A DNA stretch of 39,565 nt from Circinaria calcarea (GCA_051942165.1 JAVECS010000025.1:1-39565); one strand, 5' to 3'. Shown: positions 568 to 37,772, counted from the stretch's first letter. Program-made: numbers and translations. The notes: generated by a model not told the origin, from the sequence alone.

Positions 568-2566
568 CTACCTGGTTCTCAAGCTCACCCGCGCCGGCAT
601 ACCCTCCCTCGGTTTCGCGGAACCCTGCATAACCTGATAAGCCTCTTCGCCCCATACCTCTTGAATGCCACCAGTATCGTTGGGCCAGCAACTCCCATCC
701 CCTTTTAACAACGCCAGGTCCTCGTAGGCGGCCCGAATGTCAAACCTTCGCAATACGAGTACCAGGATAATCTTTACCTCGATGACGGCCAGCTCCTGTC
801 CGATGCAGGTCCGAGGCCCTTTGGAAAAAGGCACGTAGGCCGGATGGCTTTCTTTGCTCAGGAAGCGATCGGGGCGAAACGCGTGCGGGTCGGGGAAATG
901 GGACGGATGACGGTGCAGGCCGACGTCTACGGGTAAAAGCATGCAATGCTCCGTGGGCCAGCAAGTGCCCGTCTTTGGGTCGCGGATGAAAAAGCTGAAA
1001 AAAAGGGGGTGAGCGGAGGCTTCTATCTAAGGTACAAGGGTGTATCTATCTGGAAAAAGGGAAATCATGATTGAATGCAACGGAAAGAACACGTTCCATA
1101 CTTTTTCTCCCCGGCGCGTACGGAGCTCGCCGGCGGGTACAGTCGGAGGACTTCTTTGATGACCGCGAGCGTGTATTCCAGCTTCTGTAGTAGGTGTCCG
1201 TTGGATTTGATCAGTTGAGGCGCATTATCGAGGTCGGGCCCGAAAACCTGGTCGTGCTCTTTGCGGACCTTGGCGAGCCACTCGGCATCTTTACTGAGGA
1301 GGTGAAGAGCATAGCAAATTGTGCCGCTGACGGTATCGTGACCGGCGAAAAGGAGGGTTTTGACCTGGGAGATGACGTGTTTCTTGAAAGTGCTGTCGAT
1401 GCCTTTCGCCGTGGTGGTTGACGTATTTGGTCGTTTCCCTCCGAGAGATGTCTCCAGGACGAAGTCAATAACATGTTTTCGCTTACTACGATTTGCCCCA
1501 GTTGTATCTCGTTGGTCCAAGACCTTTGAAAGATAGTTGGTCATCTTTCGGGTATTCCACCACAACACGACTAATGCCCATGGGTTATATGCATCCCACG
1601 GCGCACTCGGGCTTCCCTGAGGGATCCACTGTACTTGGCTTTGAATGGCGTTGGCGAGCTCATTGTCCGACGTCTGAGAGTTGAGTCTAGTGTCTCTGCG
1701 CAGCATCAGCACTGACACGAATACCATTCAGATAGATCCGTCTCGTACAAGATAACCCTTGCGATGATATCGATAGTCAGCCGCGTAGCTGCTTCCTCAA
1801 GTCGGAAGACGTCACCCTTTCTCGCATGCTCGTGTAAGATATCGCAGAACACCAAGGAGTCCTCCACGATTCCCGGTATGTGGGTCATCAGATGGGAAAC
1901 CGAGAAGCCCGGGTTGAAGCTTCTTCTCCACGTACTCCATTCTATGCCATCTGAAGAGACGAGGTTCACATGAGAATCGACCAGCAGTTTCATAAAATCT
2001 TTAACCGCTTTATGTTTCGGCAGTGACGACTTGACTGTTATTTGATAAGTAATGTCGGGATCGACAATCCTAGCGATTCAGTTTCTGAGGCATGTGGAGC
2101 AAAAAATTCCTTCACGTACATTAATAGCACGTAACTAAAAGGCCAAGCATCCAGGTAGAAGAAGTCACCCAAGCCATATTTTTCTTGAATGAAGCGGGCG
2201 TCTGAAGGGTCGCATCAGAATTGGCTATTCATAAACTCATGGGCCGACTGCTAAGGCCTTACAGCATTGGGGATGAGTGCGGAGCGGGAGTGTCTTGAGT
2301 AAGTCGACAATAACTGGCAGGTGGCCCCATAAAGGATGATGAGGAGGTCCGGGCTAAGTGTCATGTCAGCCAGGAGGGTTTAGGACGGCCAAACATCAAT
2401 CATCCAGCTCGAGTTCGTGGATCCATACCAGACCTCGTACGAGTGTTCGATAAAAGTGAAGATTGATGGCAAAGCGGACGATCAGTCCGGCGGATAAAAC
2501 GACAATGGCGGCGATGACTGGATTTGCAGTGGCTACTCCCGCCACTGAATCAGCAGAGCGAGACAT
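568..2566 (-). CDS. Cytochrome P450 monooxygenase (P450-1; StcS/CYP59-like, multi-exon)
   Basis: ATG at 2566 gives [32 protein letters not shown] (TM anchor), then [13 protein letters not shown]-helix FAGHDT, K-helix EVLR, PDRF and heme motif [15 protein letters not shown] introns join the ORF fragments in frame. Confidence 0.92.
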
Positions 2567-2934
2567 CGGTCTGTGGTTTTAAAATTCATTGTCGGAAAAG
2601 GGAGAATTTAAGTAGGACCTGTAAAGCTGCCTGCGGCATACAGCTATCCCAAATCGGTCAGCCCTCCGAGAGATGCCCTACGCAGCAAGGCCGGTATGAC
2701 TTCGGAGCTGAGCATAAGCAGTACCGATTATTTCGGCAGACTCGTGTAGTCGAAAGTCTGATTCTGCCCATTCGTGCCGTCGGCTTTATTTCATGGGTGG
2801 AGGCAAAGGGCAATTAGTGGTTTGTGGAACACGCGATGTATGACGCATCCACTTGAACTTAAGTTACAGGGAGGTCACGGAGAGTTAGGCGCTCGAATGG
2901 GGCATAGCAGTGAATAAAAACGCGCAGAGACTTT

Positions 2935-2947
2935 GGGGGGGGGGGGG
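2935..2947. repeat. Poly-G homopolymer (13 G)
   Basis: Seen directly in the P450-1/PKS intergenic region. Confidence 0.9.
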
Positions 2948-3131
2948 ATGTTGTGGAGACTCTCTGTAGATGTGATAGTATACTAAATTCTCTCATGCGA
3001 TCTACGCTACCTGCCCAAAACCAACCACCGGTTGAGCATTTCTGTAGATGCCGATAAATCATCTTCCGGTCTGGCTGACCTCGGAAAATACACCTAACCC
3101 ACGGACTTTGCCATCTGTTTTGCTCGCTTCC

Positions 3132-6100
3132 TTACACTTGAAGAGGGAGAACTCCAGCCTCGGCAACATACCTACTCTTGGCAGCAACCTTCGCCGCCAA
3201 TATCGTCAACGTTGCGCTTTGTAGCACGTCGAAGATGGATAATTCAGCCTGCGCACGCGAGACGAGCCAATTCCTCATCTCGACCGCCACCAGTGAGTCA
3301 ACACCGTACTTGGACAAGGGCATCGACTCGTCGATCTCCTGTTCGGGGATGAGAAACATCTCGGACATTTTCTTGACGATAGCAGTGGTGACTACTTTTA
3401 CTGCAGCAGTCCAGGAAGAGGTTTTGCCAAGAGAATCCTTAAAGTTGCTGTAGTCTTTCTTGCCGCTGTCCCGCGAAGCTGATATAGAGGAGGATTGGAT
3501 CCGCCTGAGGCCTAAGAATCGTGGCTCCTGACGCCAGAAAATACCGTCTGAGCTGTCGGACATGTCGAACGGGGCAAGGCCCGTAATGATTTGGCTTGAG
3601 TGCTGCTCGCGGATTGGAGCTCGAATAGCCGCCTCAATGATTTGGAGTACTTCTGCCTCTTCGAGTGGTCTGTATCCAATCTGCGCTAATCTCTCTGCTA
3701 CGCCTTTAGTCTCTGCTACGTAGCCCACAGACTTGACCATTCCAAGATCGATCGAGACAGCTGGCAGACCCTTGGCTGTGCGATACCTGGCAAAAGCATC
3801 CTGGAAAGTCCCTCCAGCGGCATAATTCGCTTGACTGGGGTTACCTAATACGCCGGTCGCGGATGACAACATGATAAAGAAATCTAGGTTATGGCTTGAC
3901 AACACCTCGTGGAGATTGTGAGTTCCCTGCACTTTGGGACGAATGGCTGCTTCCCAGCTGTGATATGGCATATATTCGAAGACAGAATCCTGGTGACATT
4001 GATTAGCTTCACTACGAAAGCCTACATGCAGGTCAGGGTCTGGATCAATTACCTGAAGAACCATAGCAGCGTTGATAACCCCCCGTACCGGTGGCATCCC
4101 CTCAGTACATGCGTTCACAGCTCGTGCTAGCTCTGATCGCTCGCTGATATTACAGTTTCGAGTTACGATATTGCACCCTGTTGCTTTGAGCTGTTCTAGG
4201 AATGCTCCGGAGCTGGTCTGGGATGCCGCACTCCGGGATAGTAAGACGAGATGTTTAGCACCATGTTGTACAAACCACTGGGCAATCGATCGTCCGATTC
4301 CACCTAGGCCACCCACAATCAGGTAGGAAGCGTCGGCAAGGAGCTTAACTGGTCTTTTCTGTGAGATTACCTATTAAAAGGGTGTTAGAATTCCTTTGAC
4401 TGTATTGCATCGGTGCGGCTTACGCTAACGAGGTCGCCTTTATTCAGCTTTACGATAATCTTACCCATATGCTTTCCTGCCTGCATTAAACGGAATGCCC
4501 GCTGTATTTCCGAGATAGGATAGACTGTAATTGGGGAGACTGGTTGTATGGCTCTCTCATCAAGCAGACGAAGGACATCTGCCATCACCCTCGACATGAC
4601 TTTTCCCCTGTGGTTCCCAAGGTGGATCAAATCTATTGCGGTAAAAGAGGTTGCCCGTCCCAAAGGCTCCATTTCAAGATATCTGTTGAGCTGAATATCT
4701 CGCTTGCCAATCTCGATGAATCGGCCAAGGGTAGCGACACAGTTCCAACTTTCCTGAAGCAGCTGGCCAGCCAAAGAGTTTAATACGACGTCAACGCCCT
4801 TTCCGTGGGTCAGCCGCATTACATTTGGAGCAAAGGACCGATCTCTGCTTGAGAGAATATGATCATTGTCGATGCCATATGTTTTGATAATAAAATCGCG
4901 CTTTTCCTGCGATCCCACCGTCACAAATATCTCTGCGCCGATGTGTTGGGCCAGTATAATGGCAGCTTGGCCAACGCCTCCAGTCGCGGCGTGAATCAGC
5001 ACAGTCTCCCCTTTCTGTAGGCGCGCTATTTCGTGAAGAGAGTAGTATGCAGTAACGAATACCATTGGAATCGACGCTGCCAACTCAAACGTCATGTGGT
5101 CAGGTATCTTGCCTACCCCTGTCCAATGGATCCGGATGAAGCTTGCCCAGTGACCCCTAGTAGTCAACGCGCAGACCCTGTCGCCAACTTTGAAGCTATG
5201 AGTCGCGTTGGATCCCACCTTGGTGATCACACCACTGCATTCAAACCCCATGGTCGTTTCCTGCAGTTGGCCCATGGCTACCATTATGTCTCGGAAATTT
5301 AGGCCAAAAGCTTTCGGCTCTATCTCGACGAAGTCATCAGGTAGAGCCTCTCCTGCAGATGGGTCATCAACAAACACAAGACTATCCAGCGACCCTGGAG
5401 TTCCGACAATCATACGTAGCTCGCGTCCCGGCTGGTAGAAGGGCTGCAACTCAGGCGTCGAATTGGTGGTTGTATCACTGCCAGCGGCATCATTCATGGC
5501 TGGGTCATCGTATAGTCTAGGGACATAAACCAACGAGTCTCGTTCAGCATATTCAAAGTCCATTAAACTCTTGTCCCGTCCGTAGTCAAAGGTCAACTTG
5601 AACAAGTCAAGAATGGTGCTTATGCCAGTGGCGGTCCATGGGCCGTTTCTGGGATCGAGGTCCAGTGCGACGAACCGCTTACTACTATCTTCAAGTCGTA
5701 AAGTGCGTAGAAGACCGGTACAAAGACCATGTTCGGGCCGTTCGCAATCGATAGCTCCACCACGAGACACCCATAGGACTCCCCTTGCGCCGTTGAGTAT
5801 GTTTTTGATAGCTGCAAAGCATGAAGCATCCATACGACTGAGAACTGCGTCATCAGTATCTATGAAAATGCACACTTTCCCGTCCACGTCTATATTACCT
5901 AGGCTTCCAATTACGGTTTCGGTGAAGGTAACGGCGGATATCAACTCTTTCAAGGTGTTAAGCCATGGTTCGGGGGGTTGAAAGCTTGCATGTACGATTG
6001 CGGTCTCATGCTGATAGTATGAAGAAGCCTCAGCAGTAGCAGTCGACATAATGACGCTCATAGCGTAATTTTCATCATCCTCGGAATCACGCACTTCAAC

Positions 6101-9100
6101 ATCCAAGCCGCTAAACCCAGTTTGTTTGAGAAGGCGTTCCCATGAATCGACGCTGAGATTTGGGCTATGCTTTCGTTCCTCCTCCTCACCTAAAAGAGTC
6201 AGCAAACACAAACTCTCTCAGCATTGAAGCAGAGAGGTACGTACTAAGCCACCATCCGCTAAGGGTCCCAAAAACCAACTGGACATCAATAGCATCTTGA
6301 GTAGTCTCGACCATAATCAACTTTCCACCTGGTTTGAGTAGTCGGCGAACGTTCGTCATGGTGTGCTCCATACATTTGGTTGCATGCAGCACCTGACAAG
6401 CAATAATCAGATCATAACTGCCGAGTATAAATGATTGCTGCTCTGCATCTTGCTCAACGTCAAGTTTATTATAACTAATCATATCGCCCCAGGCACCAAA
6501 CTTCTCTCGAGCCGCTTCAAAAAACCCCGAGGAGATGTCGGTTAGGTCGTAATGAGTGAAACGAGGGCTTACCCCCGAATCACCTCCACCGAGAGCTCTT
6601 AGAACAATTCTGGTGCAAGCGCCAGTGCCGGCACCAATCTCCAGCACTTTTGCTCGAGGGTGTTCGTGTGCGAAGAGCTTGACGAGCTTCTCAACCTGAG
6701 ACAATGAGCGATCAACTCTCAAGGCTTCTTCATAGTAGCTGTAGAGAAGCTTGTTCTCCAGCATGAGTTCCAAAGGGGCGACTTCTTTCCGCAAGATAGC
6801 AAGAAGTTTTCGGCCTATGCGGACCAACATTCTACCATTAGCGCTCTTGGAAGATACTTGGTCGTATAGGCGCTGCTTAACGCCCTCGCTTGCCTTGATC
6901 CACTGGGAACTCCGGGGAGCCATTTGATTAAGTCTTACCCTCCGGTCCTGTAGCATCATCCAGTTGTACAGGACCTTATGATGCCAGTCCAACTTTTCTA
7001 TGTCTGAACCAGTCAAAGCTGCGAGTACATCGAGAATAATTTGACAGGTAGCACGCTTTAAGTCTTCGAAAAGTGCTATCTCCATGGGCTCCGGAGGAAT
7101 CATCAGTGACTCTTTCAAATCCCCCAACCGCATCAACGACAGACCACGTTCCCAATGGATAGTCATACAGAGTTTTGAATCATCCATGGTCTTCTCCGCA
7201 ACGAGTCCACTTCCGAGAGACTGATAGTGTAAACCTTCAATCTCTAAAGGCGCCGGGAAGCTGGCATCTCCCAAGTTGAAGGTAGCGATCGAGACATCGA
7301 AGCCCTGTGAATTTTGTTTATGAATAGTTGTCAAGGCTTCAAATTGATGGCCAGCATCATGGCTAATGTACTGGGAAACGAACATTCTCTTGATTGATCT
7401 CGGAATCGCTGCGCCCATTGACTTCGTTTCGCTTGTGGGGACAGTGGAGTAAGCAGCCTGGAAAAGGGCATCCAGCGTGATTGGATGCAGGACATGATCA
7501 TGTTGGTATTTATAGGGCATTAGGGAGGCTGTATCGGCAATTGAGAAACTGGCCACAGATTGATGCTGACCACATCGAATAGATATCAGATTCCTGAATG
7601 ATGATCCATGATTAATACCCACAGCCTGCAGCCGCTCGAAGAAATCTCTTGGATCAATACGGCTCATGTAAGCCCCTGACTCGATAGTACAATTCAACTT
7701 TTGACCAGGCGTGCCGTCGAATGGAGACTTGTATTTCACAGAAATAAGTCCTTTGCAATGCTCGTTCCAGTTGCCATCCTTGTCAGCAGAATAAACGTGG
7801 AACTCTTTCCAATTCTGATCTAATGTCTTGTTACTGCAATCCCGAAGTGTGATCTGCACCTCAATCCCGTCCTGTGTATCTGGAATGACTAGGGCTTTCA
7901 TAATCTCAATTTCACGTAGATTATATCCGGATACTACCTCTGCCGTGGATTCTGAAATTTGACGCGCAGCTTCAATGGCCATACATATACATCCGGCTCC
8001 TGGATAAACCATGTCTGATTGTACAAGGTGATCGCGCACCCACGGTATTTCGGAGGGACGAATAATGTGGCGCCATGTAGGCATCATCGGGTTGGTTCCT
8101 GGCGCACGAGATCCTAGCAATTCGTGCGGCGGAAACTGGCGGTGGCGGTATTCTTTATTTTTCCGGGGCTCCATCCAGTGACGAACGGAGTGGTTCCAGG
8201 GATACGAAGGCAGATCATGGATAACCTGGCGCCCATGAGCGCCTCGTGGGAAATTGACTGCTTCCAAGTCAACAGGATATCCTTCGCTTAGCAGAAAACA
8301 TGCCAGGTTTTGCATGCTTAGCACCGCGTTCTGTCCTCTTTCTAAACAAGATCCGTACGAAATCTTGTAGTCCTCAAGTTCTGGAAGCGTAAGGGTCTGG
8401 CGAATAGGTCCAGCTAGTGCACTATGGGGGCCGATTTCAACTATGGTGTCCACGGCTAGTTTGTTCTCTTGCGAATCTGTCGAAGAAGTCTCGATACACA
8501 TATTGCGAAACGACTGTGCAAAAAGGACAGGCTGAACCATGTTCCTTAGCCAATGTTCCGGGCCAAGCTCTCGGGCAGATTTTATCCGCTCTCCGGTTAC
8601 TGGGGAAGAATAGATGACTTGGCCGAAATCGCCATTCTGCTTAAGATATTGCCTTAGGGAAGCGTGATATTGCTCTGAAATAGGTTCCATATGGTGCGAG
8701 TGGTAGGCTACTGCAACCTTTAGTCTCCTCGCAAATATCTTATCTGCGAGCATCTTTGCTTCCAGTTCTTCGATGGCTTGCAGATCTCCAGCGAGTGTGA
8801 CACTTGATGGGCTGTTGACGCAAGCTACCACAACTTTGTCGCGAGATGAGACGGTTGAGAGATAAGGCTCTGTGTCTTCTCGACTCAAACCAACAGCAAG
8901 CATGCCACCATGGAGAGCGGATTTCCGCAGAAAGTTAGTAGTAAGCGTTCCTCTTGTATAAACGATTGCCAAGGCTTCCCGGAAGTCTATGGCTCCGCCT
9001 GCATATGCAGCACTGGCTTCACCGCTCGAGTGGCCTGTGACGGCGGTTGGATTGATACCCCAAGACCTTAGAAGCCTTACTAGTGATACCTGAATTGCAC

Positions 9101-11335
9101 AGCAAAGAGGAAGACTCAACATGGGCTCGTTAACGCGGCTTGTCTTTTGATCCCGCATAAGCTCATCTATACATTGTCAGCAAGCTGCTTTGTTCTTCTA
9201 GGTCTGCATCCAAGATCACCTACCAACTAAGGACCACGGAGCTCCGAGCTCCTTCAAGTGCTTATCGGCTTCCCGGAGTGATTCCTCGAAGACGGAGTAT
9301 ACTCCTATCAACTCTCTGCCCATCGCGTGCCATTGCGCTCCTTGTCCATTGAAGACGAAGCCAATGCGCGGTACTTCAGAGGAATAGCTAGGCTTAAGCT
9401 GACCATTATCGAGTGTCTCGATAAGGCCTGGGAGTGTTCGCGCAGAAGCCGTCACGACCCAAGGAAAGAATGAACGGCGTTGACCAAGGGTATAGGCTAG
9501 ATCTTGAAGGACTACCGGCTCATTCTGATCTGCACCCAGCTTAAGATAGTCGCTTAGATTGGCTATCATTGACTTAGCAACCCCCTGATCCTTTGCGCTG
9601 AGCACAAATACACGCCACTCGTCATCTCTATCGCTAGAAGAATGGCCGTTTGTCAACCTTCGCATGCGGGTATCATAGTAGATAGAATCATCCATGATCA
9701 CATGTGCATTGGTACCACCATAGCCGAAGTTGCTAAGTGAAGCCCGTCGTAATTCGTCTAGAGGCCACGGTTCAAGTAGCCTGGGAACCTGCTACATGTG
9801 AGTCATGTACGCGGTAATGATAATCAAGCAATCCAACCTTAAGGTTCCATTCTTTGAAAAGAATTGCTGGATTGGGCTTCTCGAAATTAATACTGGGAGG
9901 TATAAAGCCTTTCTCAAAGGCCAGAACAGTCTTGACCACAGATGCCAATCCACTGGCCGCTTCCAGGTGTCCGATGTTTGACTTTATCGAGCCAATGTAG
10001 AGAGGTTTCTCAGTCGGCCTTCTTTGACCAAAGACAGAGCCAATTGCACCAGCCTCAATTGGGTCTCCAGATATGGTCCCAGTTCCGTGAGCTTCCACAT
10101 AAGTTGTATTGATGGGGTCGAGGCCCGCTTTCTTGTAGCATGTTCGTATCAATTCCTCCTGTGCCGCTTGAGATGGTGAAGTGATTGTAGGGCTCTTGCC
10201 ATCTTGGTTAAGAAGTGTCTCCCTAATCACAGCACGTACCGGATCACCATCCTTTAGCGCCTCATGCAGAGGTTTGAGGATGAGAGTCGCGACACCCTCA
10301 CCACGGCCATAGCCCGACGCTCGAGCATCGAATGAGTATGACTTGCCATCGGACCCAAGAAGTCTGGGGTGGATTAGCTGCGGCCTCTTGTAGCCCTTCA
10401 AGACTATCTTACCCTAGATTTGACATTGAAATGAACATATCGGGATTTATTATAATACTCGCTCCGGCAACAACAGCCAAGTTCGAATCACCTGTTCTGA
10501 TAGATTGACACGCCAAATGTAGCGCCGTGAGGCCTGTAGAGCAACCCGTGTCGACTGTGACACTAGGCCCTCCAAGGTCGAAGAAATGCGAGATACGATT
10601 CGAAATCATGGCCGAGCCATTGCCGGTCATGAAGTACCGAGGCAATAGCTCCGGATCTCGCATTAAGCTGTCATGGTAGTCTCTGAAAAACGCCCCTGCG
10701 AACACTGATGTTGACGTCCCCGCAATTTTTTCGATGGGAATGCCCGCTACAGCAGATCAGCGGAAACCCCAACCCTAATGTCTGATCTGACCAACCACTC
10801 TCAAGAGCCTCGAATGTAGACTCGAGCTGAAGTCGGTATTGTGGGTCCATACTCTAGAAACGTCAGCTCACTCTTTTTCGGTTTTAGGACCGCTCTTAGG
10901 GTGCTAACACTGGCTACTTCGGCAGAAAAATTGAAGAAAGAGGCGTCAAATAAAGATATATCGTCTTTAAGGAAATGCCCACCTAAGACGTTGGACTTTG
11001 GTCTTTTCATCAGTGAAAGTCTTTTAGCCGCGGAAGTGGCATTTACCAACCGTACCCATATTTTCACCTTGTGGGTGATAGAATGCTCTCTGGTTGAATC
11101 TGTCCTCGGGTATTTCCGACCACGCGCTGCGGCCTTCGGCACACAACTGCCATAGCTTCGTGGGACTACTGGCACCGCCAGGAAATCTACAACTCATGCC
11201 GACTATGGCAATCGGTAATGTGGCCTCGAGTGGTGGGTCTGCCACAAGTCCATGTCGGGGTGTGTAGGTATCGTCAACATTACCGTCCAGCTTGCCAATG
11301 GTCTCCCCATTGTCACCAAGCAATGGACTCATCAT
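3132..11335 (-). CDS. Highly reducing iterative type I polyketide synthase, KS-AT-DH-cMT-ER-KR-ACP
   Basis: [94 protein letters not shown]. c[61 protein letters not shown]. No TE/R domain. Multiple introns. Confidence 0.96.
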
Positions 11336-12341: not shown

Positions 12342-13411
12342 ATGACTTCGCTTATTATCGAAGAAAGCTGTATACCTCGTCTGGATGGGAAAGTGGCCAT
12401 CATCACCGGTTAGTCAAACCGAGTAGCCGTGCTTTTCTCGTAGCGTCTTCTCTGCCAATAACTTCCCCGCCTATCACTGCTCACGGCTAACTGGACAGGG
12501 GGCGCATCTGGCATTGGTTATGCCACCGCAAAGATATTAGCCACCAGTGGCGCAAAGGTACACATACTCGATCTCAACTTACCCGACGAGTCAGACAACA
12601 GAGGAACTCTCCAGCTTGAATTCATTCGGTGCAATGTTGCTAATTGGTCCGAACTGCGTCTGGCCTTTCAAAAGATTGGACATGTGGATATGGCTTTTGC
12701 GAATGCGGGCATCTCAGAGGAAACGGATTACTTTCAAGACAGATTCGAAGACAACGGTCTTCTTGCTGAGCCGGCGTACCCTGTACTTGATGTCAATCTG
12801 CGGGCTGTCATTAACTTCGTCAAGCTGAGCTGGAGCGTGATGAGACGCGACGGAACTAGGGGGAGCATTGTCATCACAACTAGCGCAACTGCCTATGCTC
12901 CGGAGCAATCTCTACCTGTATATGCAGCTGCAAAGCTAGCGGTAAGTCCCTCTGCTATCGCTGTGTTATTTGGTTGGCGAGGGAACCGTGGGCCTGACAT
13001 TTACCCTCCTCTCAGTTAGTCGGGCTAGTCCGCGCCCTCCGCTCCACCATTATTCGAGATGGCATCACCATCAACGCGGTCGCGCCCGCAGCAACAATAA
13101 CGAATCTCTTACCAGCAGTCCTCGCCAAGCCAATTATTGCAGCAGGCCTTCCTGTCAGTTCTGCCCACTTAGTCGGTCTTGCCCTAGTTTACTCTGCTAC
13201 AGCCAAAGAGACTCGAAGGGTCCAAGCATACGGTAAAGATAAAGAGGAGGAAGATGAAAGGGAGGGAAGGTGGAACGGAAGAGTGATTTTAACTCTAGGA
13301 AATCGGTACACGGAGCTGGAAGAGCCGATTTCTCGCCTTAGAGGAGAGTGGTTTGGCAAGAACAATCTTGAGGATACTAGGATGCAGCAGGCAATGACGG
13401 ATTTTCGGTAA
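12342..13411 (+). CDS. Short-chain dehydrogenase/reductase (SDR-1)
   Basis: ATG at 12342, [29 protein letters not shown] (Rossmann motif split by an intron), FANAG, catalytic YAAAK, ending [10 protein letters not shown] at 13411; two GT-AG introns. Confidence 0.9.
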
Positions 13412-24824: not shown

Positions 24825-24961
24825 AGGGAGAAGGAGAGGGAGGGGGGGAAGGGAGAAAAACAGAGAAAGAGAGAGAAAGAAAGAGAGAGAGAAGAAAGAA
24901 AGGGAGAGAGAGAGAAAGAGAGGGAGAGAAAGAGAGGGAGAGAAAGAGAGAGGGGGAGAGA
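24825..24961. repeat. Polypurine GA-rich low-complexity tract
   Basis: About 137 nt, all A/G except a single C, with reiterated GAGAGAAAGAGAGG units. Confidence 0.92.
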
Positions 24962-25961
24962 TTGGTACGTTTTGAAACTAGGTAGTAATAAGTGTGGTTC
25001 GTAGTACCGAAAAAGGTTTATTATTTACCTCTTTAGCTGGAGCTTCTCTGCCCTTCTGCATGTTGCCAAGTTTCAAGGGTGTATTTCCCTGGAAGAGCTT
25101 TCATTGTCGAGCTCATAATCCAAGATCGATAAGACCCGCTAGCTAGCCTGTGAGCATCAATCAACGTGCTTGGCTGACTAGGTAGTATGAGTCTCTGGTG
25201 GAGTGGGGCTAGTGAAGATCTTGCGAATCCGAGAGCTCGGACAAAGTCACGATCCTTCAGATGCAGCATTGCGGATTGCCACTAGGCTTACTCCGTGCTT
25301 ACGACATGACCTCTACAGACTATATGCTGATTGGTCTGCAGGGTAAAGATCCGCTCCACTCCGAAGGATCTATTCCCAGGTAGGTCCCTTCCAGCATCCC
25401 GAGTCTGGTGCAGAATGCTTCTTCTGTATGCCAGGTACTTGTACCTGCATATGGAGAATTGTCCGATCGATCAGCCTAAAGGCACTAGTTGCATATCAAT
25501 AATACTGTAGTTTTCCCATCGATATATTAAGAGTGCTAATGGCAGCAAGGGATGAGCAACGCTGACGACAACTGAGAAGGCAGAAACGAATACGACGAAA
25601 CAGGATGTTGATACAAGCCATCTCGATCGGAGGTTTGGCATACAAGGATAGTATTTGGTTTGCCTTAATCCGGCGCCGATAGCCCACTTGAGTAGTTTGA
25701 AAACAAAGCTAACCAACACTGTTAGATGTCACCTGAAAGATGGACAGAATAAGGCACACACTTACTCTTTAGAGGCTAAATACTGCGCCTCCCGACTTCC
25801 AGGCTCTCGCAACTCCTTTCGGCCTAATTCAGCCAGCCTCCAAGCTTGATCGGCGAGGCTGAAAAGAAATATATAAGTCATTCGAACGACCATGCTTGCT
25901 GATCGATCCAACGTCTGGGCTTATACTGCGTTCCCCTCTGTTCTTGAAATCCTGCGATATC

Positions 25962-27713
25962 ATGTTGGCACGTTTCGGCTGTGTAGTGGCTGCTGCCTTT
26001 ACTCTGGTAGGCGTGACTGGTGGGTTCTTGACTTCCAGAAACGCCAGTGGAGTGGCCGGCTGTATCGGATTGGCCAGTATGTTTCCTCAGAAGCTATTCT
26101 GGCCCAACACGACCACATATATCAACGAGTCAACCCGTACGTATCCTTCTTTCTCATTCATGTCACCCTCGCTGCAGAATCTCGTTTTGTTCTTGGCCTA
26201 CCCTCATTAGCGGGTTTGAGGCATGCCTTGTGCTAATTTTTGTTTCTATTTCAGGTCTTTGGTCTGAGACTTGCCTACTCTCCCCGAACTGTGTTTTCAC
26301 ACCCAGTGATGCGGATGATATAGCAAAAGCCCTGAAAGTCATTCGCGAAACCAACTCCCCGTTTGCAGTCCGAAGTGGTGGCCATATGCCCGTCCCTGGT
26401 GCCGCGTCAACAGATAATGGTATTATGATCGCCATGACGAATATAAATACCAGAAACCTGATACACAATCAGTCCATCGCCCAGCTTGGTCCGGGTCAGA
26501 TCTGGCAAGACGTATATGATTGGATCTCAGCCTATGATCTTGGCGTCGCCGGTGGAAGATATGGTCAAGTTGGTGTCGGCGGCCTTTTAACAGGCGGAGG
26601 AATAAATTACTTCGGTAATCGGTTTGGCTGGTCTTTCAACAGCATCGTCCAGTACGAGGTTGTCGTAGCGGATAGCTCGATCCTTCAAGTCAACGCCAGC
26701 TCGCATCCCGATCTTTTTTGGGCATTGAAGGGGGGATCCAATAATTTTGGCATTGTGACACGTTTTGATATGAAGACTTTCCCGGTTACCACCGCATATG
26801 TAGGAGGAATAGTCTGGATCCCCGATGCGCTGCCTGCATTTCTGGAAGCTGTAGGCAATTTTGTTCAACCGGGCGGAGGGTCGGAAGATCCTCTGGTAGC
26901 AATCAACCCTGCTATTGCACTTACACCAGCCAATGGAACCGTGGAGCCGACGAATATTGTATTTTATCAAGGAAATGAAACTGCGCCGGCAACACTGGCA
27001 AACTTTTCCGTTATTCCAGGAACACTTTTCAATGATACTGGAGTTAGACCTAGCTGGATTTCATTGCCGGCGGAGCTGAACCAGCCGGCATTTGCCGCTA
27101 GAACCTCAAGGTAATCGTTCAAAATACTCCAAAACTGAGTCTTCGACTTCTGATATATCTACTTCTCTTCTAGGCAGCTTTTCTGGTCCGTTGGTATTAA
27201 ACCGACGCAAGCGGCGATAAATCTTGCAAATGTTACAATCGTCGGCGGCGCTCTCTCACAGCTGCAGCATATACCCGACCTAACACTTACATTAGCCTAT
27301 CAACCAATTACCAAAGCGTGGCTAGCAGCAGCACGGGCATCTGGGGGTGATGCGATTGATCTTGATCCTGCAGATGGGGGATTTATATGTTCGTTCTATT
27401 CCACGCCCTTATATTTTTTTTCCACGCTGATAAGCCAGCGATTTTAATATCTGCCACATGGTCTCACGCAACCGATGACGCCGATATCAACGGTTTTATG
27501 CGAAGTGCGACCTCGACGCTGATACAGCAAGCCAAGGCAGCAAACCTATATTACCCGTTCATTACCCTAAACGATGCAGGCAGAGGCCAGGATCCTTATC
27601 CGCTGTATGGCAAGGGAAAGAGTCTTCCACGGTTGAGAAAAATTCAAAAGATGTACGATCCTAACAGGGTTTTTCAGGACCTCGAGGCAAGCGGCTTTAA
27701 ATTAAAAGCGTGA
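25962..27713 (+). CDS. FAD-dependent oxidoreductase (berberine-bridge/VAO family) with N-terminal signal peptide
   Basis: MLARFGCVVAAAFTLVGVTGG signal; PNCVFTP, FAVRSGGH (covalent-FAD His), VGVGGLLTGGG, DLFWALKGGSNNFGIVTRF, C-terminal YDPNRVF...GFKL; three introns. Confidence 0.92.
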
Positions 27714-28352: not shown

Positions 28353-30301
28353 TTAAGGGACTCGCTCATGAAACCGGACCATTAATGCGGGTTTAGCCCA
28401 CATAATCCAGACTGCGCTTGAACCCAGCCAATCGAGCCCTTTATCGACAAGCTCCATGTCGTATCTCCATACTAGTTTCGCTAGAGTTAGATTGATTTCC
28501 ATGATGGCGAAGCTGCGCGGCAGATTAGTCTCTAAAGGCTTGATGTATTAGTCGAAAACATGTGTGGTGAAAACGTACTTGCGTCCGAGACAGCCTCGGG
28601 ATCCCAAGGAGAAAGGCTGACTTGCTTCCTTAATGTCGGTACAGTCGGTTTCCAGCCAGCGTTCTGGCTTAAACTTCATAGGATCATGAAAGTTACGCAT
28701 GTCGTGCGTAACAGACCACGCGCTTGTATATATTTCTGTCTGTATGAGGAGGAATGGATCAGTGACCCAATCATAAAGCTATCTCTGTGATAAATTCAAC
28801 AACATACATCTTTGGGTACCCAGTATCCATCTACAAAAATACCAGGAGATATTCTAGGGAAGCCTTGAGAGCCTGGTGGGTAAATTCGTAAACCTTCCTC
28901 AATAACAGCTTGAAGATACGGCAACTGTTGTGCTGCTGTAGCGTTGATAGACTCGTAACTTGGGAAACAGCTGCGCACTTCTGCTCGTAATTTATCATAA
29001 CATGCATCTTCCTGCAGCAGGTAAAAGGTGGTTGCGGCGAGAAAAGTAGCAACAGTCTCACCTCCCGCAATGCTGGTCCTGATCAGCGCTCGCCTCTAGA
29101 TGTATATCAGGGTGTTTTAAACATACACAAGTGTTGATACGTGAGCGGTCATCTCTTCTTTTGCAACTTCTCCACTTTCCACCTTGCTCACAAGGGTGGA
29201 TAGGAAGTCTTTCCGCGTTGACTTACTATCCAATCGGCTGTACAAGCAATATCAGCTTCTGATGAGCATTCAAGCGTACAAAGTAGCTTCCTACCGTGCT
29301 ACTTTCTCTCTACTGTACATTGAATTTTGATTTCGCACCGCAACCGTAGATGGGAACAAGGCCTTGGTGATACTTGATATCAACGGAAAACGACGTAAAT
29401 TATCGGCGACGGTAATGTAGAACAGATGGCTAAGAATTAGTTCCTGCCAGAAATGTGGTTTCCCTAAGAACCAATGTTAAATTCCGTGCACAAGAAAATC
29501 TGACTTCAATACGGAGCTCACCGTTCTCGATACAATGGAATGATTCTCCAAATGCCATATCACCCAGGACATCGAAAGCGTTCATTTCGTACCATTTTGA
29601 CATATTCAATCCGTCTGAGCCAGGGCCACCATCTTGCCCTACTTTGAGAACAAAAGCATCTATGTTCCGTGCAACAATACTCTCTTGCTCAGAGAGTGCC
29701 TTGGTTGAGAAAGCCGAAGATAAAGATTTCCGCATCTGATTATGTTTCAGGGGATTCCGCTCTGATCCAACACACAAAGATTCAAAGCCAGCCCCGTACA
29801 TATCATAAAACTCGCTTTTGATGACCGCCCCCTTATCTGCCGGTCGATGCCCATAAATCGCTTTCCAAGAGGCAACAGAAGCAAAAGACAATTCGTTGGG
29901 CGAAACACGAAAGACAGGTCCTAGGGATGAAGTCAACTTAGCGTAGCAAAAGCTGCTGGTGTACCTGCATACCATATATCTGGTGTTCTCGATCTATGGC
30001 CAGATGGATACGCCCACTCATCGAGTGCAAAAGCCTCCATAGCTATTTCTAGCGATAAGATTTCCCATTGATCATACTACCATTGTGACGCCATGACTCA
30101 CCAGGCTGCAGCGTGCAAGAATTGGCCCTGGATAACCTGCAAGGGGGTGAAAGTAGACATTATATATCATCGATGTTGCTATCCACAAAAGAGCCTAGAA
30201 TTAAAAGATAAGAATTAGCTCTTTTTAAATGCCCTAGATATAAATAGTGAACCGGTCTTACAAACCATTGTCATAATTCCTCCTATAAGTGAATACATCA
30301 T
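28353..30301 (-). CDS. Cytochrome P450 monooxygenase (P450-4; CYP65/Tri11-like), many introns, start codon uncertain
   Basis: YNVYFHPLAGYPGP, GPVFRVSPNELSF, GDMAFGESF, AHVSTLV|IAGGET, EGLR, PERW, heme motif QPFSLGSRGCLG; ends VRFHERVP* at 28353. Confidence 0.88.
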
Positions 30302-31175: not shown

Positions 31176-32821
31176 ATGCTGTCAAGACCGAGAGATGTAG
31201 GCATCAAGGCAATTGAAATTTACTTTCCAAGTCAGGTATGCTGAGATCAAGGTTGGATTCTATCCTTCGTGATGATGGCCAACAATTGAGACTGCAACAG
31301 TGTGTCGATCAGACCGAGCTTGAGAGATTCGATGGCGTTAGCCAAGGCAGATACACAATTGGTCTGGGCCAGACGAAGATGAGCTTCTGCGATGATCGCG
31401 AGGGTGCGTTGCAAACAGCTCTAGCCAGAGCTGGCAATCATGACTTATGAAATGACAGATATCTATTCAATGGCGCTAACAACTGTCTCGTCCCTTCTTC
31501 GAAAGTATCGGATACATCCCGAAAGCGTTGGACGGCTTGAAGTGGGAACAGAAACCCTCCTTGACAAATCGAAATCTTGCAAGACAGTCTTGATGCAGCT
31601 TTTTGGGAGTAACACGAACATTGAGGGTGTCGATACCGTCAATGCTTGCTACGGAGGCACCAACGCTGTCTTCAATTCAATCAACTGGATTGAATCGTCT
31701 GCCTGGGATGGCCGAGATGCTGTTGTTTGTGCTGGAGATATTGCCCTGTACCAAAAGGGGAATGCTCGACCCACCGGTGGAGCTGGTTGTGTTGCTATGC
31801 TTATTGGACCCGATGCTCCTTTGGTCTTCGAACCTGGGATGCGAGGGACTTATATGAAGCACGTCTATGACTTTTACAAGGCCGATCTGACCTCAGAGTA
31901 CCCCTTTGTTGACGGTCAATTTTCTCTCAAGTGCTATACGGAGGCAGTGGATGCCTGCTACAAGGCGTATCATGATAGGAGGACTTCCCTCGAGCAAGGG
32001 CACCTACCAGTGCCCGAAGACGGGCATGCGATGATGAACGACCACGGCATTTCTAAGGATCATAGCGATTTGAACGGGGATGGAAATGCTGATGGAACTA
32101 GTAACATAAATAATGATATGAGATCTAGCAAGAAGCTGCTGTTGGATCACTTCGATTATTTGGCCTTTCATACGCCAACCTGCAAGCTCGTCTCAAAGTC
32201 CTATGCGCGGATGCTGTACAACGATTACATCGCCTCTCCGACACATCCGCTCTTCGACTGCCTCCCAGCTGAGCTCCGAGCTATGGACTACGAGAGATGC
32301 CTCGGCGACAAGAAGGTAGAAAACGCGTTCCTGGCTCTTAGTAAAGAGATGTTCGACGCCAGAGTCCAACCCTCACTTCAGGTCCCGAAAATGTGCGGGA
32401 ACATGTACTGTGCTAGTGTCTACGGGTCTCTGATCAGCCTGTTGAGCAATATACAGAGCGAGCAACTGCGCGGCAAGAGGATAGGTATCTTCAGCTACGG
32501 AAGTGGCTTAGCTAGCTCACTGTTCAGCTTGATCGTTAAGGGAGATGTCGGCACTATTGCGCACAAAGTCGACCTTCATGCAAGGCTCGAGGCCAGAAGG
32601 ACTGTGCGACCGGAGATATATGAGGAAGTAAGTCCCTCGCCTGCCGAAACATGTATGATGATAGTGTTGACCCGAGCTCCCAGATGTGTCTGTTGAGAGA
32701 AAAAGCTCACTTACAGAAGAACTCCAAACCAAAGGGAAATCAAGAGACACTTGCCAAAGGTACTTACTACCTTGTCGAAGTAGACGAGGTTTTTAGACGC
32801 AAGTACGAGGTTAAGGCATAA
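31176..32821 (+). CDS. ERG13: Hydroxymethylglutaryl-CoA synthase (ERG13-like), cluster-embedded copy
   Basis: [20 protein letters not shown]|, YTIGLGQ, catalytic Glu in EVGTET, Cys in NACYGGT, His in FHTPTCK, GNMYCAS, FSYGSG, ending RRKYEVKA*; three GT-AG introns. Confidence 0.95.
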
Positions 32822-33482
32822 ATAGTCTCACATCTTTATATAATATTGTTCTTTGCTATTGTAGAGGCGAAAGCAAAGCATAAACGGTGGACAATTTGGC
32901 CATTAAAGCAAATACTTTTCCCTGCATTGTCTAGAATATCTAAATAAGGACAACAAGTGAATATGAATTCGAATTCTCAACCGGTCACGAGAGCTACAGC
33001 GGAAACATTGCAAGCTGAAACAGAGAGGGTGTTGAAATGCCTTTTGGTCACGTTGTGCCTAAGTATTGAAAGGTGAATTTGTATGGGCTGAAGCTATCAA
33101 ATTACTATGGGATTATAGTGGTATTTATGATAGTCATGACCATGCAGCTTGCCCACTTGATACGGAGCAGCAAACGAGAGAACAAAGGTTTCAAGAATAC
33201 CTGCGGGAATTCTCTGCATAGAATGCGCCGATGCTCGGAGCTTCTGCATGCAAGCAGCGCTTTCCACCAAATTCTAACAAAAAGCTCTAGTTAGTAATCC
33301 TCTCTCGCGTAGGGCTTTCCCATCCCAGTTTAAACATGTGTTGAAAGGGTGATCTGGTGGTCGAGGCCCGATCCGGAAAACGAAATGGGAATAGAAATTG
33401 GGAGGGGGAATATACATCAACACCGAGTGCTCTTCTGGTATATACCGAGAAGGACCTGAGCTATTGAAGGTCGGTGGGTACC

Positions 33483-35388
33483 CTACTCGACACCAAGTCC
33501 CAATTCTCTCACCCGTGAAACCCGTACTCTTAGCTCCGGTTTCTGCCACAGTGTCGTCATCCTTGAATCGCGCTGCCAATCCAAGTCTTGATTCAATAAG
33601 ATCATATCGTACGTGAAGTACAGCTTTGCCAGGATAGTGGTCAGTTCAATCCAAGCCAGACTACAATTAAGCGCTAAGTTAGTACAGGGGCTGAAAGGGA
33701 AAATAATCCTGCTGCGCAAGGTACAAAGAGAGGAATGAGGAAAGGGTCGAACCTGCGCCCAAGACACCCTCGTGGTCCAAGCGAGAATGGCTGCGTGGCT
33801 TCCAACTGGTCTGTCTTGTTTACTCCTAACCACCGCTCGGGACGAAAAGATAGTGGAGCTTCAAAGTGCTTGGAGGAGAGGCTCGCAGCTACCGGATTTG
33901 TAGAAACGATCGTCTATTGAAACGGTTGAGCATTGGTAGCTTTTCGACTTGGGTGGCCCGCAAATAACATACTCCAGCAGGTAGATAGTAACCATCCACG
34001 GTGTCTCCCCCGTCAGGTACGACACGGGGGAGTGCAAATGGCAAAGGCGCATACAATCGCATTCCTTCGAGGGCCACGGCATGGAGGTATTTCAATTTCG
34101 CCGCGGCAGTCGCGTCGATTTCCTCATACTTGTTGAAAGCCGAGCGGATTTCATCTTGTACCCTCTGCAAAATTGGGGGGTTTCGCAGGAGGTAGTAAGT
34201 TATACAGCTAAGGGCGGTTGCGGTCGTTTCACTGCCCGCCGTACTTTGTATTGATCAGTCATGCTTTGCATCTGGTCTTACCGATACAGGATAACTCACA
34301 CGAAATCTGAGGCGTGAGCAGCTAGCTGAACGTCGCTTATATTATTGGTGTCTCGATCGTCCAAAATGCGGGTGAGAAAATCCGGCCGATCACTAGGGTG
34401 TTGAATTCTTCTAATAGTGAAAGTGAGCTATTTCTCTATCTATATTCCATTTATGGCCTCAAGTGCAACCTTTGAATTAAATCCAATGTATGACGTTCAT
34501 GGATCTTCGTATCCCGAATAAGGTTTTCAATGGTTCTCGGCATTATAGCTTTGAAAAGCTTTGCAATGATAGGAAACCTATTGAAGGTATCTGCCAGTGC
34601 ACCCTGCCTTAAAGCCTTGGTTACAAGAGCGATCCAGAAATGCACTTTGCCTAATATATGCGAGTTAGTACGCTGCTTGTACCCATAATCAGAAATGATC
34701 AGAGTATAGGTTAAACGAACCAGACTTGACACCACCAAACGACCGTCCAAACGCCAAACTACCGATAATGTCAAATGTAGTAAGGTTGAACCACATTACA
34801 ATATTAGCACCCTGTTCCCCTGAAGCGTACACGCCCAATTGGGCGATGAACTCGTCGACAACCTTATTCACCAGACCCTCTTGGTCTTTCAACGACCGAT
34901 CTGAAAACGCGTGTGAAAGGTACTTCCGCATCTTACCATGTACAGCCGGATTCCGTTCGCTGACGATTGAATAAGCTTGGTCTGCAAAGCTCCCGCCGTC
35001 ATAGAAATCGCTTTTGATGAAGGGGCTATGCCCCGGCCGGAAGCCGTAGATATCTTTCCATGAACCAATAGAGTTGAACGAGAGCTCGTTGGGAGCTGTG
35101 CGGACTACGGGTCCATACTTCTCATGTAGCTGGAGGATCTTATACGGTTGGCGACCGCCGAGAAACCAGTATGAGTGGAGTAAATTACTCCAGGCGGCGA
35201 GGAAGGGGCCGGGAAATCGGTACAAGGGGTGATTGATATGTCTCCAGAGAGTTGCTCCTAGGGTAGCAAGCAGGATCTGCGATTGATTTAATTGGATAAA
35301 CGTGACAATCGATCAATACCCAGAGCCTTACGGACACGGCAACAATCAGCGATCCAGTGTGTAGTCCGAGATACGAGGAAACCTCCAT
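33483..35388 (-). CDS. Cytochrome P450 monooxygenase (P450-5; CYP65/VerB-like)
   Basis: HPLYRFPGP, YGPVVRTAPNELSF, FDIIGSLAFG, AHASDFV|TAGSETT, EGMR, PERW, heme motif QPFSLGPRGCLG; multiple introns. Confidence 0.9.
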
Positions 35389-36156
35389 CTTCCTTTCTTT
35401 CCAAACAATATATTCGACACTTTCAGACAGGTCCTTGATGGTTTAAACCAGACGATCAGGGGCGAACAGGTCAGGTATAGGTAGCACCGTGTAATTTCTT
35501 GAAGAGTTGATGGCAAAAGTGAAAGCCAATTAAAAGAAACAGAATGACTACTCACTCGTACGGAAGAATCAGCTTAAACAACCAACGGTTGCTCGAAATG
35601 TTTCTGCGCTGTACATTCCGCAGTCGAGCTTGGAGTATCGGAGGTATACCGGCTCATCCCAATTCGGTAGTGCCCGAATCGCTCAGCGTATGCAACCTTG
35701 AGATGCAAGACCTCTGACTTCTTCTCTGCATGAAATACACTGCCTTAATACTTGCCTGTTCCTAATGCTCATTGCAATATTTACCTTCTGGTTATGGCGA
35801 TGGTGAAGCATAGGAAAGCATGCTGGTCTTCGCCTACCCAGCGGAAACTATTCTAGTGGCAATAAGACAGGGCGGATTTTCTGTCAAATTCTAAACAACT
35901 GCAGATGTCAACGCTATTGCCTCCCTGTGAAATTCGATATAATGCCCTGCTATCACAGCTACTGGCATAGTTAGCTTTCTCATCAGATGGCGTTATAGTA
36001 ACTACTTTCGAAGGTCTTCTGAACTCAAGTATGAAGGCAATCCGCTCATCGGCCCATATAGGTAGATCATGGACGATGCTAGCCTATTTACGTCAAATAT
36101 CCAAACGGTCTAATACCTTACAAAAGGAGATGAGCGCCACAATAGTTGATAAGCAG

Positions 36157-37772
36157 TCATGAAGGATCCGTACTCCCCATTCTGCCTTGAACCTCGGTGC
36201 GTTGTAGCTTGGCGGCGGTGTCTCTAATTTTACGCTCCGCAGTAAGTAGTACTGTATGTTGAGCTCCTCGAAGTTCTAAAGATGTTACCATCTTGATCTT
36301 CGCCATGAGACTTCCCAGTCTCTTCAACTGCAAGAAGATCAGCACTCTAATTAGATGCTCCCATTCTTCCCGTTGGTCGATTTCGTAATTGCCGAAGAAA
36401 ACCTTCCGACGACACTCGTCACCCTTTCGTGAGCTCCTCTCTTCAATCCCATGCTTGGAGCCAAAGCAAACATGGGGTTGCCAAGTGTGTTGCAGAAACC
36501 TGGACGCGATTCTATCACACATGGCTACCAACTTTTCGCAGACAACAGCAAGCAACATCATGTTTTCCGATCGAGCGGTACATATTAGGCAACGTAGCAT
36601 AGTATTGCAGCGATGCAAAGCCTCTTTGTGATACGCTAAAGCTGAATCCAGTATCGCCGAGTCAATAGCGTTACTCCGGTACTCTGTTTCTTCGAGTAGG
36701 AGGACAAGCGTCTGTAGGCATTGACAAGACGAGTGTGCGTGGTATGATGATGGAATCATGCTCTCCGCATTCTGGGTAATCTGAGCCGCTCGATTGCCGT
36801 AGGTTAGTGGCGGTGTGCATATGCCCACGTTATCCCGGTGTGTGGGCTGCTGCAGATGTAGTTTATCCGCGTGCGCCATAGGATAGGCTGTTGAGGAAGG
36901 CGAAGGTAAGACCGAATGTGGCCGAGTCATAGGAGTAAGTATGGCTTTGGTGGATAAGGTAGGCCGGCCTGCACACGATTGGGCAATGTGCTGTTAGTCA
37001 AGTTTCATCGATTTATATTGGTTGGTACATAACAGCATACCCTGAGTATGGTCTGAAGAAGCGCTATTGCTGTCCAGGATTGGAGAGCCGAAAGGAAAAG
37101 AGTCATTCGCATTACTATCTGTGTGAAAGGTGTAGTCTGGGGTCGTCGTGTTATAGTTTCCTACACCGTGGGAGCCATAATCGGGCATGATGTCTCGCAA
37201 CATCTGGTCTGAGATTATACAATCTTCCTCAAAGCTCGGCACTGGCGACCCAAGTCCACCGAGCATATCATCCTCTGCAGGATCCCTGCCCTGCTCATGT
37301 TGAAACGGATTATTCTCTTGCCTTGGCGGTGTCCCTATTTGCTGGCCTACTGCGGCCTCTGTTGACTGTGGAGCAAAGACATTCGTCGAGCCGAGCTGGG
37401 TTGGAGGAGCTGCTCCTGACTGGGACGATAGGCCCTTTTCCTGTAACCGTGTGTCGGGCCGCTTGCGCCGTCTTGTACCCTTTCCATCCACAGTTTCCGA
37501 ATACACGCAGGAAGTCGCTGTGGCTCTGCATCGATCACATCCAGACTTTTGGCCGCTACATCTGAGCTGTTAAGGGGAGTCCTGGTGATTAGCTATGGAG
37601 CTTTACGCAGAAGTTGCTATCGCAACGGTAGCCTAACCTTTTTGAATCGACACTTGTCACATGCAGAATGCTGAGGAACATGAGCCCCAGCATCACCGAG
37701 TAAAGATCCATTGGGCCGCTCTGTGAACTCGCTACCGTTACGCTGCGGGTCGTAACGCAAGGTGCCGAACAT
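36157..37772 (-). CDS. Zn(II)2Cys6 pathway-specific transcription factor
   Basis: ATG at 37772, MFGTLRY...HSACDKCRFKK|LRCSGQKSGCDRCRATATSCVY; all six Cys are present once an intron is removed. The C-terminal CQCL...CNTMLRCLIC region resembles AflR-type cluster regulators. Confidence 0.9.

Follow-up and report, generated by a model that had tools for sequence, protein, structure and literature searches.

A candidate eremophilane-polyketide ester gene cluster with an embedded HMG-CoA synthase on a contig labeled as the lichen-forming fungus Circinaria calcarea

A stretch of DNA labeled Circinaria calcarea (GCA_051942165.1, JAVECS010000025.1:1-39565), a whole contig of 39,565 bp analyzed here in full (hereafter the window), carries a set of secondary metabolism genes that includes a relative of aristolochene synthase, a polyketide synthase of the highly reducing type (HR-PKS), an acyltransferase and a 3-hydroxy-3-methylglutaryl-coenzyme A (HMG-CoA) synthase (HMGS). 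The DNA is intron-bearing and eukaryotic in character, with an even composition of 45-51% G+C. To take inventory of the genes, 164 stop-to-stop open reading frame (ORF) pieces of at least 70 amino acids from both strands were scanned against Pfam at a cut-off of E≤1e-3. Matches were returned by 27 of the 164, all within 12 enzyme genes: twelve pieces lie in five cytochrome P450s (P450s), seven in the PKS and two in two short-chain dehydrogenases/reductases (SDRs), two match FAD_binding_4/BBE, two HMG_CoA_synt, one Transferase/TRI-like and one Terpene_syn_C_2. Gene models were obtained with a dynamic programme that allows for splicing and was trained on long exons of the window, together with junction searches and reading by eye, and were compared for collinearity with homologues where these were obtainable. 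All of the genes, which number 13 with a regulator recognized by its six-Cys motif, are open from ATG to stop once short introns are removed, all of them GT-AG save one GC-AG intron in an SDR, and judged from these models all 13 appear intact; one or two splice junctions are uncertain in each of the models for P450-D, P450-E and the flavin adenine dinucleotide (FAD) oxidase. The original prediction, a reading of the bare sequence, had placed 13 such genes at 568-37772, and its limits are exact, with 568 the last base of the P450-A stop codon and 37772 the A of the regulator ATG.

The terpene cyclase gene (18558-19670, minus strand, 338 amino acids) has three exons separated by introns at 19348-19303 and 19028-18979. 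In searches against PDB sequences its exons 1-3 match the aristolochene synthase of A. terreus with E values of 2.6e-41, 4.8e-46 and 7.8e-53 and are collinear with residues 13-90, 93-181 and 182-317 of that chain, with 221 of 303 aligned residues identical when counted on the alignments. The metal-binding motifs DDVLDD and NDIYSYEKE are both present. By sequence, the enzyme is closely related to a structurally characterized aristolochene synthase, and its predicted product is aristolochene. The adjoining gene on the same strand encodes an acyltransferase of 486 amino acids in a single exon (16125-17585, minus strand; PF02458, Transferase/TRI-like N, E 1.7e-30), which matches both PF02458 and PF22664 and is BAHD/TRI101-like; its closest solved structure is TRI101 (2zba, E 4e-14). 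The histidine and aspartate of its HXXXD motif (H172 and D176) are invariant in a 33-sequence alignment.

The HR-PKS gene (3132-11335, minus strand, about 11 exons, Pfam matches on seven exon pieces plus motifs) encodes a protein of about 2,570 amino acids with the domain order KS-AT-DH-cMT-ER-KR-ACP, as identified by Pfam and a motif scan. All seven domains keep their motifs, including the GVDSL motif, although the DH motif reads HxxxSxxxxP instead of HxxxGxxxxP, and in domain set and active-site motifs the enzyme is a fungal highly reducing iterative PKS that, on this basis, should make a reduced, methyl-branched chain. The protein ends about 55 residues beyond the ACP serine and has no release domain. 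Because the sequence stops at the ACP, the PKS would need a separate trans-acting release enzyme. Its KR domain contains an in-frame, stop-free intron of 63 nt (4052-3990, minus strand; GTAATT...CACCAG, with a CTAAT branch site), which an ORF-based reading overlooks, adding 21 spurious residues.

The oxidative part of the gene set is large. The five P450s, which fall into four families and all keep the heme-binding Cys motif, are P450-A (568-2566, minus strand, about 550 amino acids, six exons; Pfam p450 on three exon pieces), P450-B (13755-15708, minus strand, 579 amino acids, four exons; Pfam p450), P450-C (21831-23938, minus strand, three exons, the last matching Pfam p450 at E 4e-10), P450-D (28353-30301, minus strand, about 490 amino acids, at least eight exons; Pfam p450 on three pieces, FSLGSRGCLGR motif) and P450-E (33483-35388, minus strand, about 490 amino acids, seven exons; Pfam p450 on three pieces, FSLGPRGCLGR motif). 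The curated model of P450-A has PGPP, AGHDTVS and EVLR motifs and no internal stops. P450-C has a CYP7-like heme motif, GGGQFMCPGRHFA, and starts at 23938 or at an inner ATG at 23731. P450-D and P450-E are paralogues with 39% identity over 463 amino acids, and a search of the ESM Atlas with a P450-E exon returned only generic P450 clusters. Both SDRs, SDR-A (12342-13411, plus strand, about 300 amino acids; adh_short E 3.6e-21, YAAAK motif) and SDR-B (20610-21584, plus strand, 307 amino acids, two exons; adh_short E 3e-15), keep TGxxxGxG and YxxxK. The BBE-type FAD-linked oxidase (25962-27713, plus strand, about 506 amino acids; FAD_binding_4 E 4e-23, BBE E 6e-4) keeps a GGH flavinylation-type motif within RSGGHM and has an N-terminus that resembles a signal peptide. 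In SDR-B, the glycine motif TGGTAGLG forms only when the sequence is joined across 20686-20736 (GCTAGC...TATAG, with a CTGAC branch site), and no frame-keeping GT donor was found for this intron. Either the intron is of the uncommon GC-AG class or its donor was misassembled.

The HMGS gene (31176-32821, plus strand; HMG_CoA_synt_N and HMG_CoA_synt_C, E 2e-61 and 1e-83) has four exons at 31176-31235, 31301-31403, 31459-32627 and 32684-32821, and the corrected model is a canonical protein of 489 amino acids with canonical N- and C-termini. Against human HMGCS1 (2p8u, E 1e-107) the motifs VGTET, NACYGGT and FH(T/S)P are aligned, and these we take to hold the catalytic Glu, Cys and His. With both Pfam halves, all three motifs and full length, the protein is of the ERG13/HMGCS type. 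The depositor's model for this gene (518 amino acids, 31176-33218, plus strand) has a wrong first exon, lacks the conserved N-terminus encoded by 31176-31235 and continues through two surplus 3' pieces; the 489-amino-acid model fits better.

At its left end the gene set has a real border, as bases 2-349 (plus strand) hold the coding sequence for the C-terminal end of a P5A-type ATPase (Spf1), a housekeeping gene by homology and thus outside the cluster; in a PDB sequence search this 3' gene end aligns with the final ~110 residues of the chains 8op3 (E 9.8e-35) and 6xmp (E 8e-21). The right border is lost, with the contig ending 1.8 kb beyond the regulator, and the description of the cluster as apparently complete can therefore be judged on the left side only. 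Between these limits no unrelated gene interrupts the set, as had been proposed: none of the ORFs in the sole long gap (23.9-26.0 kb) matches Pfam at E≤1, and in the depositor's numbering five locus tags separate 000384 (a fusion of acyltransferase and P450-B) from 000390 (HMGS), equaling the five genes found here. No transporter gene was detected in the 39,565-bp window. Between the regulator and the contig end lies an ORF of 106 amino acids (39093-39413, minus strand), for which hydrophobic segments are predicted and Pfam gives no family.

The depositor's model Q9187_000384 (1,058 amino acids) fuses the acyltransferase and P450-B at 13755-17585 (minus strand) by splicing over about 440 nt, a splice that omits the acyltransferase stop codon and the first codons of P450-B; owing to this fusion, the acyltransferase homologue search did not return its own product. 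The two genes are likewise fused in an A. nanangensis model (1,062 amino acids) and are annotated as two genes in Elasticomyces and Pseudovirgaria. P450-B has a membrane-anchor N-terminus of its own, and the fusion is, from the sequence, probably an annotation artefact.

These genes can be arranged into a plausible hybrid pathway toward an eremophilane-polyketide ester. The cyclase would convert farnesyl diphosphate (FPP) to aristolochene, and one P450 together with one SDR would install the C-8 ketone of 7-epi-neopetasone; candidates for this core pair are P450-A, C, D or E and SDR-A or SDR-B. A further P450 would hydroxylate the ring, at C-1 in the Xylaria model, and the acyltransferase would then transfer the methyl-branched, reduced acyl chain from the PKS ACP (or from a CoA ester) to the ring hydroxyl. 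The remaining P450s and the FAD oxidase may oxidize the isopropenyl side chain and one methyl group, the Zn2Cys6 factor would turn the gene set on, and the HMGS, as an extra and diverged copy, would supply the mevalonate pathway for FPP. The gene identities and the eremophilane-ester logic put forward in the original prediction are supported by the collinearity of the cyclase with aristolochene synthase, by the PKS without a release domain and by the HXXXD acyltransferase beside the cyclase.

Clusters of this kind have been described before. For each of sporogen AO-1, hypoxylan A, PR-toxin and eremoxylarin D, a cluster was proposed by Sun et al., Chem Sci 2023 (PMC10686045), and in the putative eremoxylarin cluster of Xylaria hypoxylon, xhR3-xhPKS, the cyclase lies beside the acyltransferase XhL1, with a PKS, P450s and an SDR; only XhR1 was expressed in that work. 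More recently, Shi et al., ACS Omega 2026 (PMC13736955, cited from part of its text) grouped 371 eremophilane clusters, of which 37 belong to a "group C" and 7 to a "BC" group. Group C is defined there by the P450 Emp6C (XhL4, a C-1 beta hydroxylase), the PKS Emp12, the group P450 XhR1 and the HXXXD acyltransferase XhL1, and according to the same text the order of the eremophilane tailoring steps is not experimentally established. The Circinaria cluster resembles both in having an aristolochene synthase beside a PF02458 acyltransferase, along with an HR-PKS, P450s, an SDR and a transcription factor, and in its predicted product class, an eremophilane O-acylated with a branched polyketide. The aristolochene synthase (Emp2) is present by sequence with both metal-binding motifs, as is a PF02458 acyltransferase with HXXXD of the XhL1 type. 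In number, the P450s and SDRs would also suffice for the Emp9/Emp4 core, the C-1 and C-13 hydroxylases and the group-specific P450, and the FAD oxidase is of the Emp3 kind. In contrast to the X. hypoxylon cluster and group C, the gene order as given in the papers' text differs, and the Circinaria set has five P450s, two SDRs and an embedded HMGS, with no transporter; the main text of PMC13736955 does not mention "hmg", "mevalonate", "lichen" or "Circinaria". The statement that this combination of enzymes matches no recognized cluster is therefore out of date in the light of PMC10686045 and the available text of PMC13736955. Among the clusters that could be compared there is no one-to-one syntenic match to a characterized cluster, and the suggestion that the product may be new stands. 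The cluster kind has thus already been described as a putative class, of which the Circinaria example is a new and fairly divergent member with an added HMGS.

Related gene sets bracket this assignment. The clusters for PR-toxin (Penicillium roqueforti) and sporogen AO-1 (Aspergillus oryzae) likewise hold an aristolochene synthase, a core P450 and SDR, more P450s and a FAD oxidase (Prt3/Emp3), which oxidizes C-13 (PMC10686045 and the available part of PMC13736955), but they contain no PKS, PR-toxin uses an acetyltransferase, and an HMGS goes unmentioned. The overall logic of a sesquiterpene-polyketide ester, in which a P450 installs the hydroxyl that a transferase then esterifies, alongside a terpene cyclase and a PKS, is shared with fumagillin, with the calidoustenes (drimane esters; PMC8596746, in part), with the melleolides and with aculealide (lpg cluster; PMC13213483, in part). 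The cyclases of these systems differ from that of Circinaria, being UbiA-type, HAD-like, AsR6-like or a protoilludene synthase, and in the drimane and nanangenine clusters the transferase is an alpha/beta hydrolase, unlike the PF02458 enzyme found here (PMC6880815).

The relatives of the acyltransferase and P450-B extend the comparison. At E≤1e-3 the acyltransferase has 63 homologues, the best at 67% identity, with named homologues in Elasticomyces elasticus (59%), Amniculicola (50%) and Trypethelium (a metagenome-assembled genome (MAG) from a lichen, 40%). P450-B is collinear with the 576-amino-acid Elasticomyces protein P0185 over residues 1-575, and its 33 homologues include proteins from Elasticomyces (64%), Pseudovirgaria (57%), A. 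nanangensis (55%) and Peltula (lichen MAG, 54%). Thirteen of the 33 are from Xylaria or Xylariaceae (11 at 42-51% and 2 at 37%), and none is from Penicillium or A. oryzae; because Xylaria homologues are many and those of Penicillium and A. oryzae absent, P450-B fits a group-specific P450 and not the universal core one, as far as sequence relationships go. In Elasticomyces the locus tag of the P450-B homologue is adjacent to that of the acyltransferase homologue, and homologues of the two sit on one contig or carry neighboring tags in Elasticomyces, Pseudovirgaria, Trypethelium, Achaetomium, A. nanangensis and one more record. By this measure the acyltransferase/P450-B pair is conserved across classes. 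In A. nanangensis the acyltransferase and P450-B homologue, FE257_004521, lies outside the published nanangenine cluster FE257_006541-6546.

To look for the same genes in environmental DNA, metagenomes were scanned with the acyltransferase. A scan with the single sequence gave 22 pattern matches, of which 0 were confirmed, and a scan with the acyltransferase alignment gave 79 loci, which were then searched by tblastn with the 13 window proteins. Only two of the 79, L002 (1-21446) and L003 (1-21449), share at least five genes with the window. In both, the gene was retrieved with 10 kb on either side, covering about 21 kb of contigs of 53-66 kb, and the five shared genes are contiguous: the PKS (45-48%), acyltransferase (44-45%), P450-D (49-55%), SDR-A (57-60%) and P450-B (49-50%), accompanied by an aldo-keto reductase. 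L002 holds an additional P450 that is unrelated to any P450 of the window. The window was searched for remnants of this aldo-keto reductase and extra P450, and none was found. The ORFs beside the PKS in the two loci are mutually unrelated and belong to no Pfam family.

Several observations weigh against assigning the Circinaria genes to a single group C-type ester pathway, chief among them that L002 and L003 have no cyclase or HMGS within 10 kb on either side. Nor does the fetched DNA of any of the 79 loci contain a cyclase or HMGS match at E≤1e-2 (0/79), and L003 looks flanked by a pectate lyase gene at one end and by a Zn2Cys6 gene at the opposite end. The named Xylaria and Hypoxylon homologues of the acyltransferase reach only 33-38% identity (Xylaria palmicola 38%, Hypoxylon 33%). 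As to the host, the contig comes from a metagenome bin labeled Circinaria calcarea, an assignment that is not certain. The HMGS, together with its closest relative, falls among Ostropomycetidae sequences with a placement support of only 80-84%.

The five-gene module suggests an alternative in which two pathways are interleaved, the PKS, acyltransferase, P450-B, SDR-A and P450-D making an (acylated) polyketide of their own, and the cyclase making a free eremophilane of the petasol or sporogen type together with SDR-B, the FAD oxidase and the remaining P450s, so that no ester is formed. In keeping with this, L002 and L003 carry the module but no class I cyclase within 10 kb on either side, L003 is apparently bounded at both ends, and the available text of PMC12113121 lists petasol, sporogen AO-1 and other eremophilanes of lichen mycobionts in unacylated form. 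In the window, however, the module is split, with P450-D 10 kb from the rest, and the cyclase stands between the two parts, right beside the acyltransferase. The X. hypoxylon cluster, with polyketide esters at O-1 as its products (PMC10686045), shows the same cyclase-acyltransferase adjacency. As the Circinaria PKS lacks a release domain, the acyltransferase would need an alcohol acceptor, and L002 and L003 were viewed over only 21 kb of their 53-66 kb contigs. We regard two separate pathways as improbable, and consider it fairly likely, from gene content and arrangement, that the genes form a group C-type cluster whose product is an eremophilane O-acylated by the PKS product.

The role of the HMGS can be weighed separately. 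Identity between the protein and named Lecanoromycete HMGSs is 68-71%, compared with 72-94% among the latter, and in a tree of 24 sequences it forms a fully supported pair, on a stem of 0.26, with one relative at 80% identity. A long low-complexity insert is common only to these two, and 12 differences fall at positions at least 95% conserved elsewhere, not counting 8 due to the depositor's wrong first exon. On these grounds it fits a diverged extra copy. Its most likely role is to supply the mevalonate pathway toward FPP while the cluster is active. A sesquiterpene pathway with an HMGS of its own has a counterpart in the hirsutene synthase-HMGS fusion of Stereum hirsutum (PMC9501842, in part), although that is a basidiomycete fusion protein, whereas the ascomycete cluster described here encodes its HMGS in a gene of its own.

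Self-resistance is our second choice after precursor supply, by analogy with hymeglusin (1233A): the cluster product or its polyketide part would inhibit HMGS, and the extra copy would protect the producer. When a fungal cluster contains a second copy of a primary-metabolism gene, that copy often serves resistance. In the Circinaria cluster, the HMGS lies between two P450 genes, the cluster has a C-methylating HR-PKS, and the divergence just described, with its 68-71% identity, 12 private substitutions and narrowly shared insert, speaks for this role. The hymeglusin cluster has the same trio of HR-PKS, HMGS paralogue and P450 (PMC12291444, in part); there, unlike here, the three genes are the whole cluster and the HMGS confers resistance. 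The Circinaria cluster also holds a cyclase and an acyltransferase, and it has no compact HR-PKS/HMGS/P450 unit of the hymeglusin type, the PKS and HMGS being 20 kb apart with eight genes between them, terpene genes included. Against resistance, moreover, the catalytic and obvious active-site residues are unchanged, and two other rows of the HMGS alignment carry 11 and 13 private substitutions and are thus equally substituted. We know of no eremophilane ester that inhibits HMGS. The hirsutene fusion, in turn, is a precedent of the supply type (PMC9501842, in part). A self-resistance gene is accordingly unlikely in our estimation, and slightly less likely still is the stronger form of the idea, that a resistance copy flags the acylated eremophilane or a reactive polyketide chain as a new HMGS-inhibitor chemotype from a lichen mycobiont. 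The occurrence of the same divergent HMGS lineage in at least one other organism, represented by the 80% relative, suggests a conserved function.

A third role would be polyketide beta-branching, or the provision of HMG-CoA as acyl donor, instead of mevalonate supply. An HMGS acting with an enoyl-CoA hydratase has been proposed in the Alternaria ACT/AK-toxin clusters (PMC8102738, in part), but Pfam finds no enoyl-CoA hydratase or other partner of a branching cassette in the window, the termini of the HMGS are ERG13-type and it groups with housekeeping HMGSs, and the PKS's own C-methyltransferase can supply branches. This role seems very improbable, and precursor supply remains the preferred function.

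The features that set the Circinaria cluster apart are its lichen-fungus host and the embedded HMGS, which is divergent and, by its motifs, active-looking. Petasol, sporogen AO-1, 1-beta-hydroxypetasol and others have been obtained from cultured mycobionts of Sarcographa and Graphis, which are Ostropomycetidae like Circinaria, while no acylated eremophilane from lichens is listed in the available text of the same source (PMC12113121), and our literature search turned up no description of an aristolochene-based cluster from lichen-forming fungi. The cluster may thus give a genetic basis for eremophilanes in lichen-forming fungi. By the count of a 2026 paper, only three families of fungal sesquiterpene-polyketide esters had been characterized before it added aculealide (PMC13213483, in part). 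The acylation chemistry of the eremophilane-polyketide esters (integric acid, the eremoxylarins and the xylarenals) is still unproven. With its 13 apparently intact genes, the contig is a compact starting point for reconstitution, and its HMGS poses a simple testable question, supply versus self-resistance.

The regulator gene (36157-37772, minus strand, 490 amino acids, three exons) encodes a Zn2Cys6 (AflR-like) transcription factor whose six-Cys motif, CX2CX6CX6CX2CX6C, is complete after removal of a 71-nt intron at 37637-37567. It has no Pfam match at E≤1e-3; the matches are weak, to Zn_clus (E 0.037) and AflR (E 0.0055), the latter scoring 17.2 bits where the cut-off is 24 bits. No enrichment of the AflR-type site TCGN5CGA is seen in the window (14 sites versus 8.6 expected, with 6 of 100 shuffles reaching 14), and 10 of the 14 lie inside gene models. 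Promoter DNA, which makes up 21% of the window, holds 15 of the 26 CTCCGA sites (binomial p 6e-5), an enrichment that is not significant after correction for 2,080 hexamers (p 0.13), and CTCCGA is offered only as a lead to a candidate binding site of the regulator. The hexamer is present in seven of nine intergenic promoter regions and forms convergent pairs 38-43 bp apart in the promoters of P450-A (2664/2702), PKS|SDR-A (11991/12034) and P450-B (15777/15815). Five CTCCGA sites lie in the 2-kb gap between the divergent P450-C and FAD oxidase genes (23939-25961), which may be an unusually long shared promoter.

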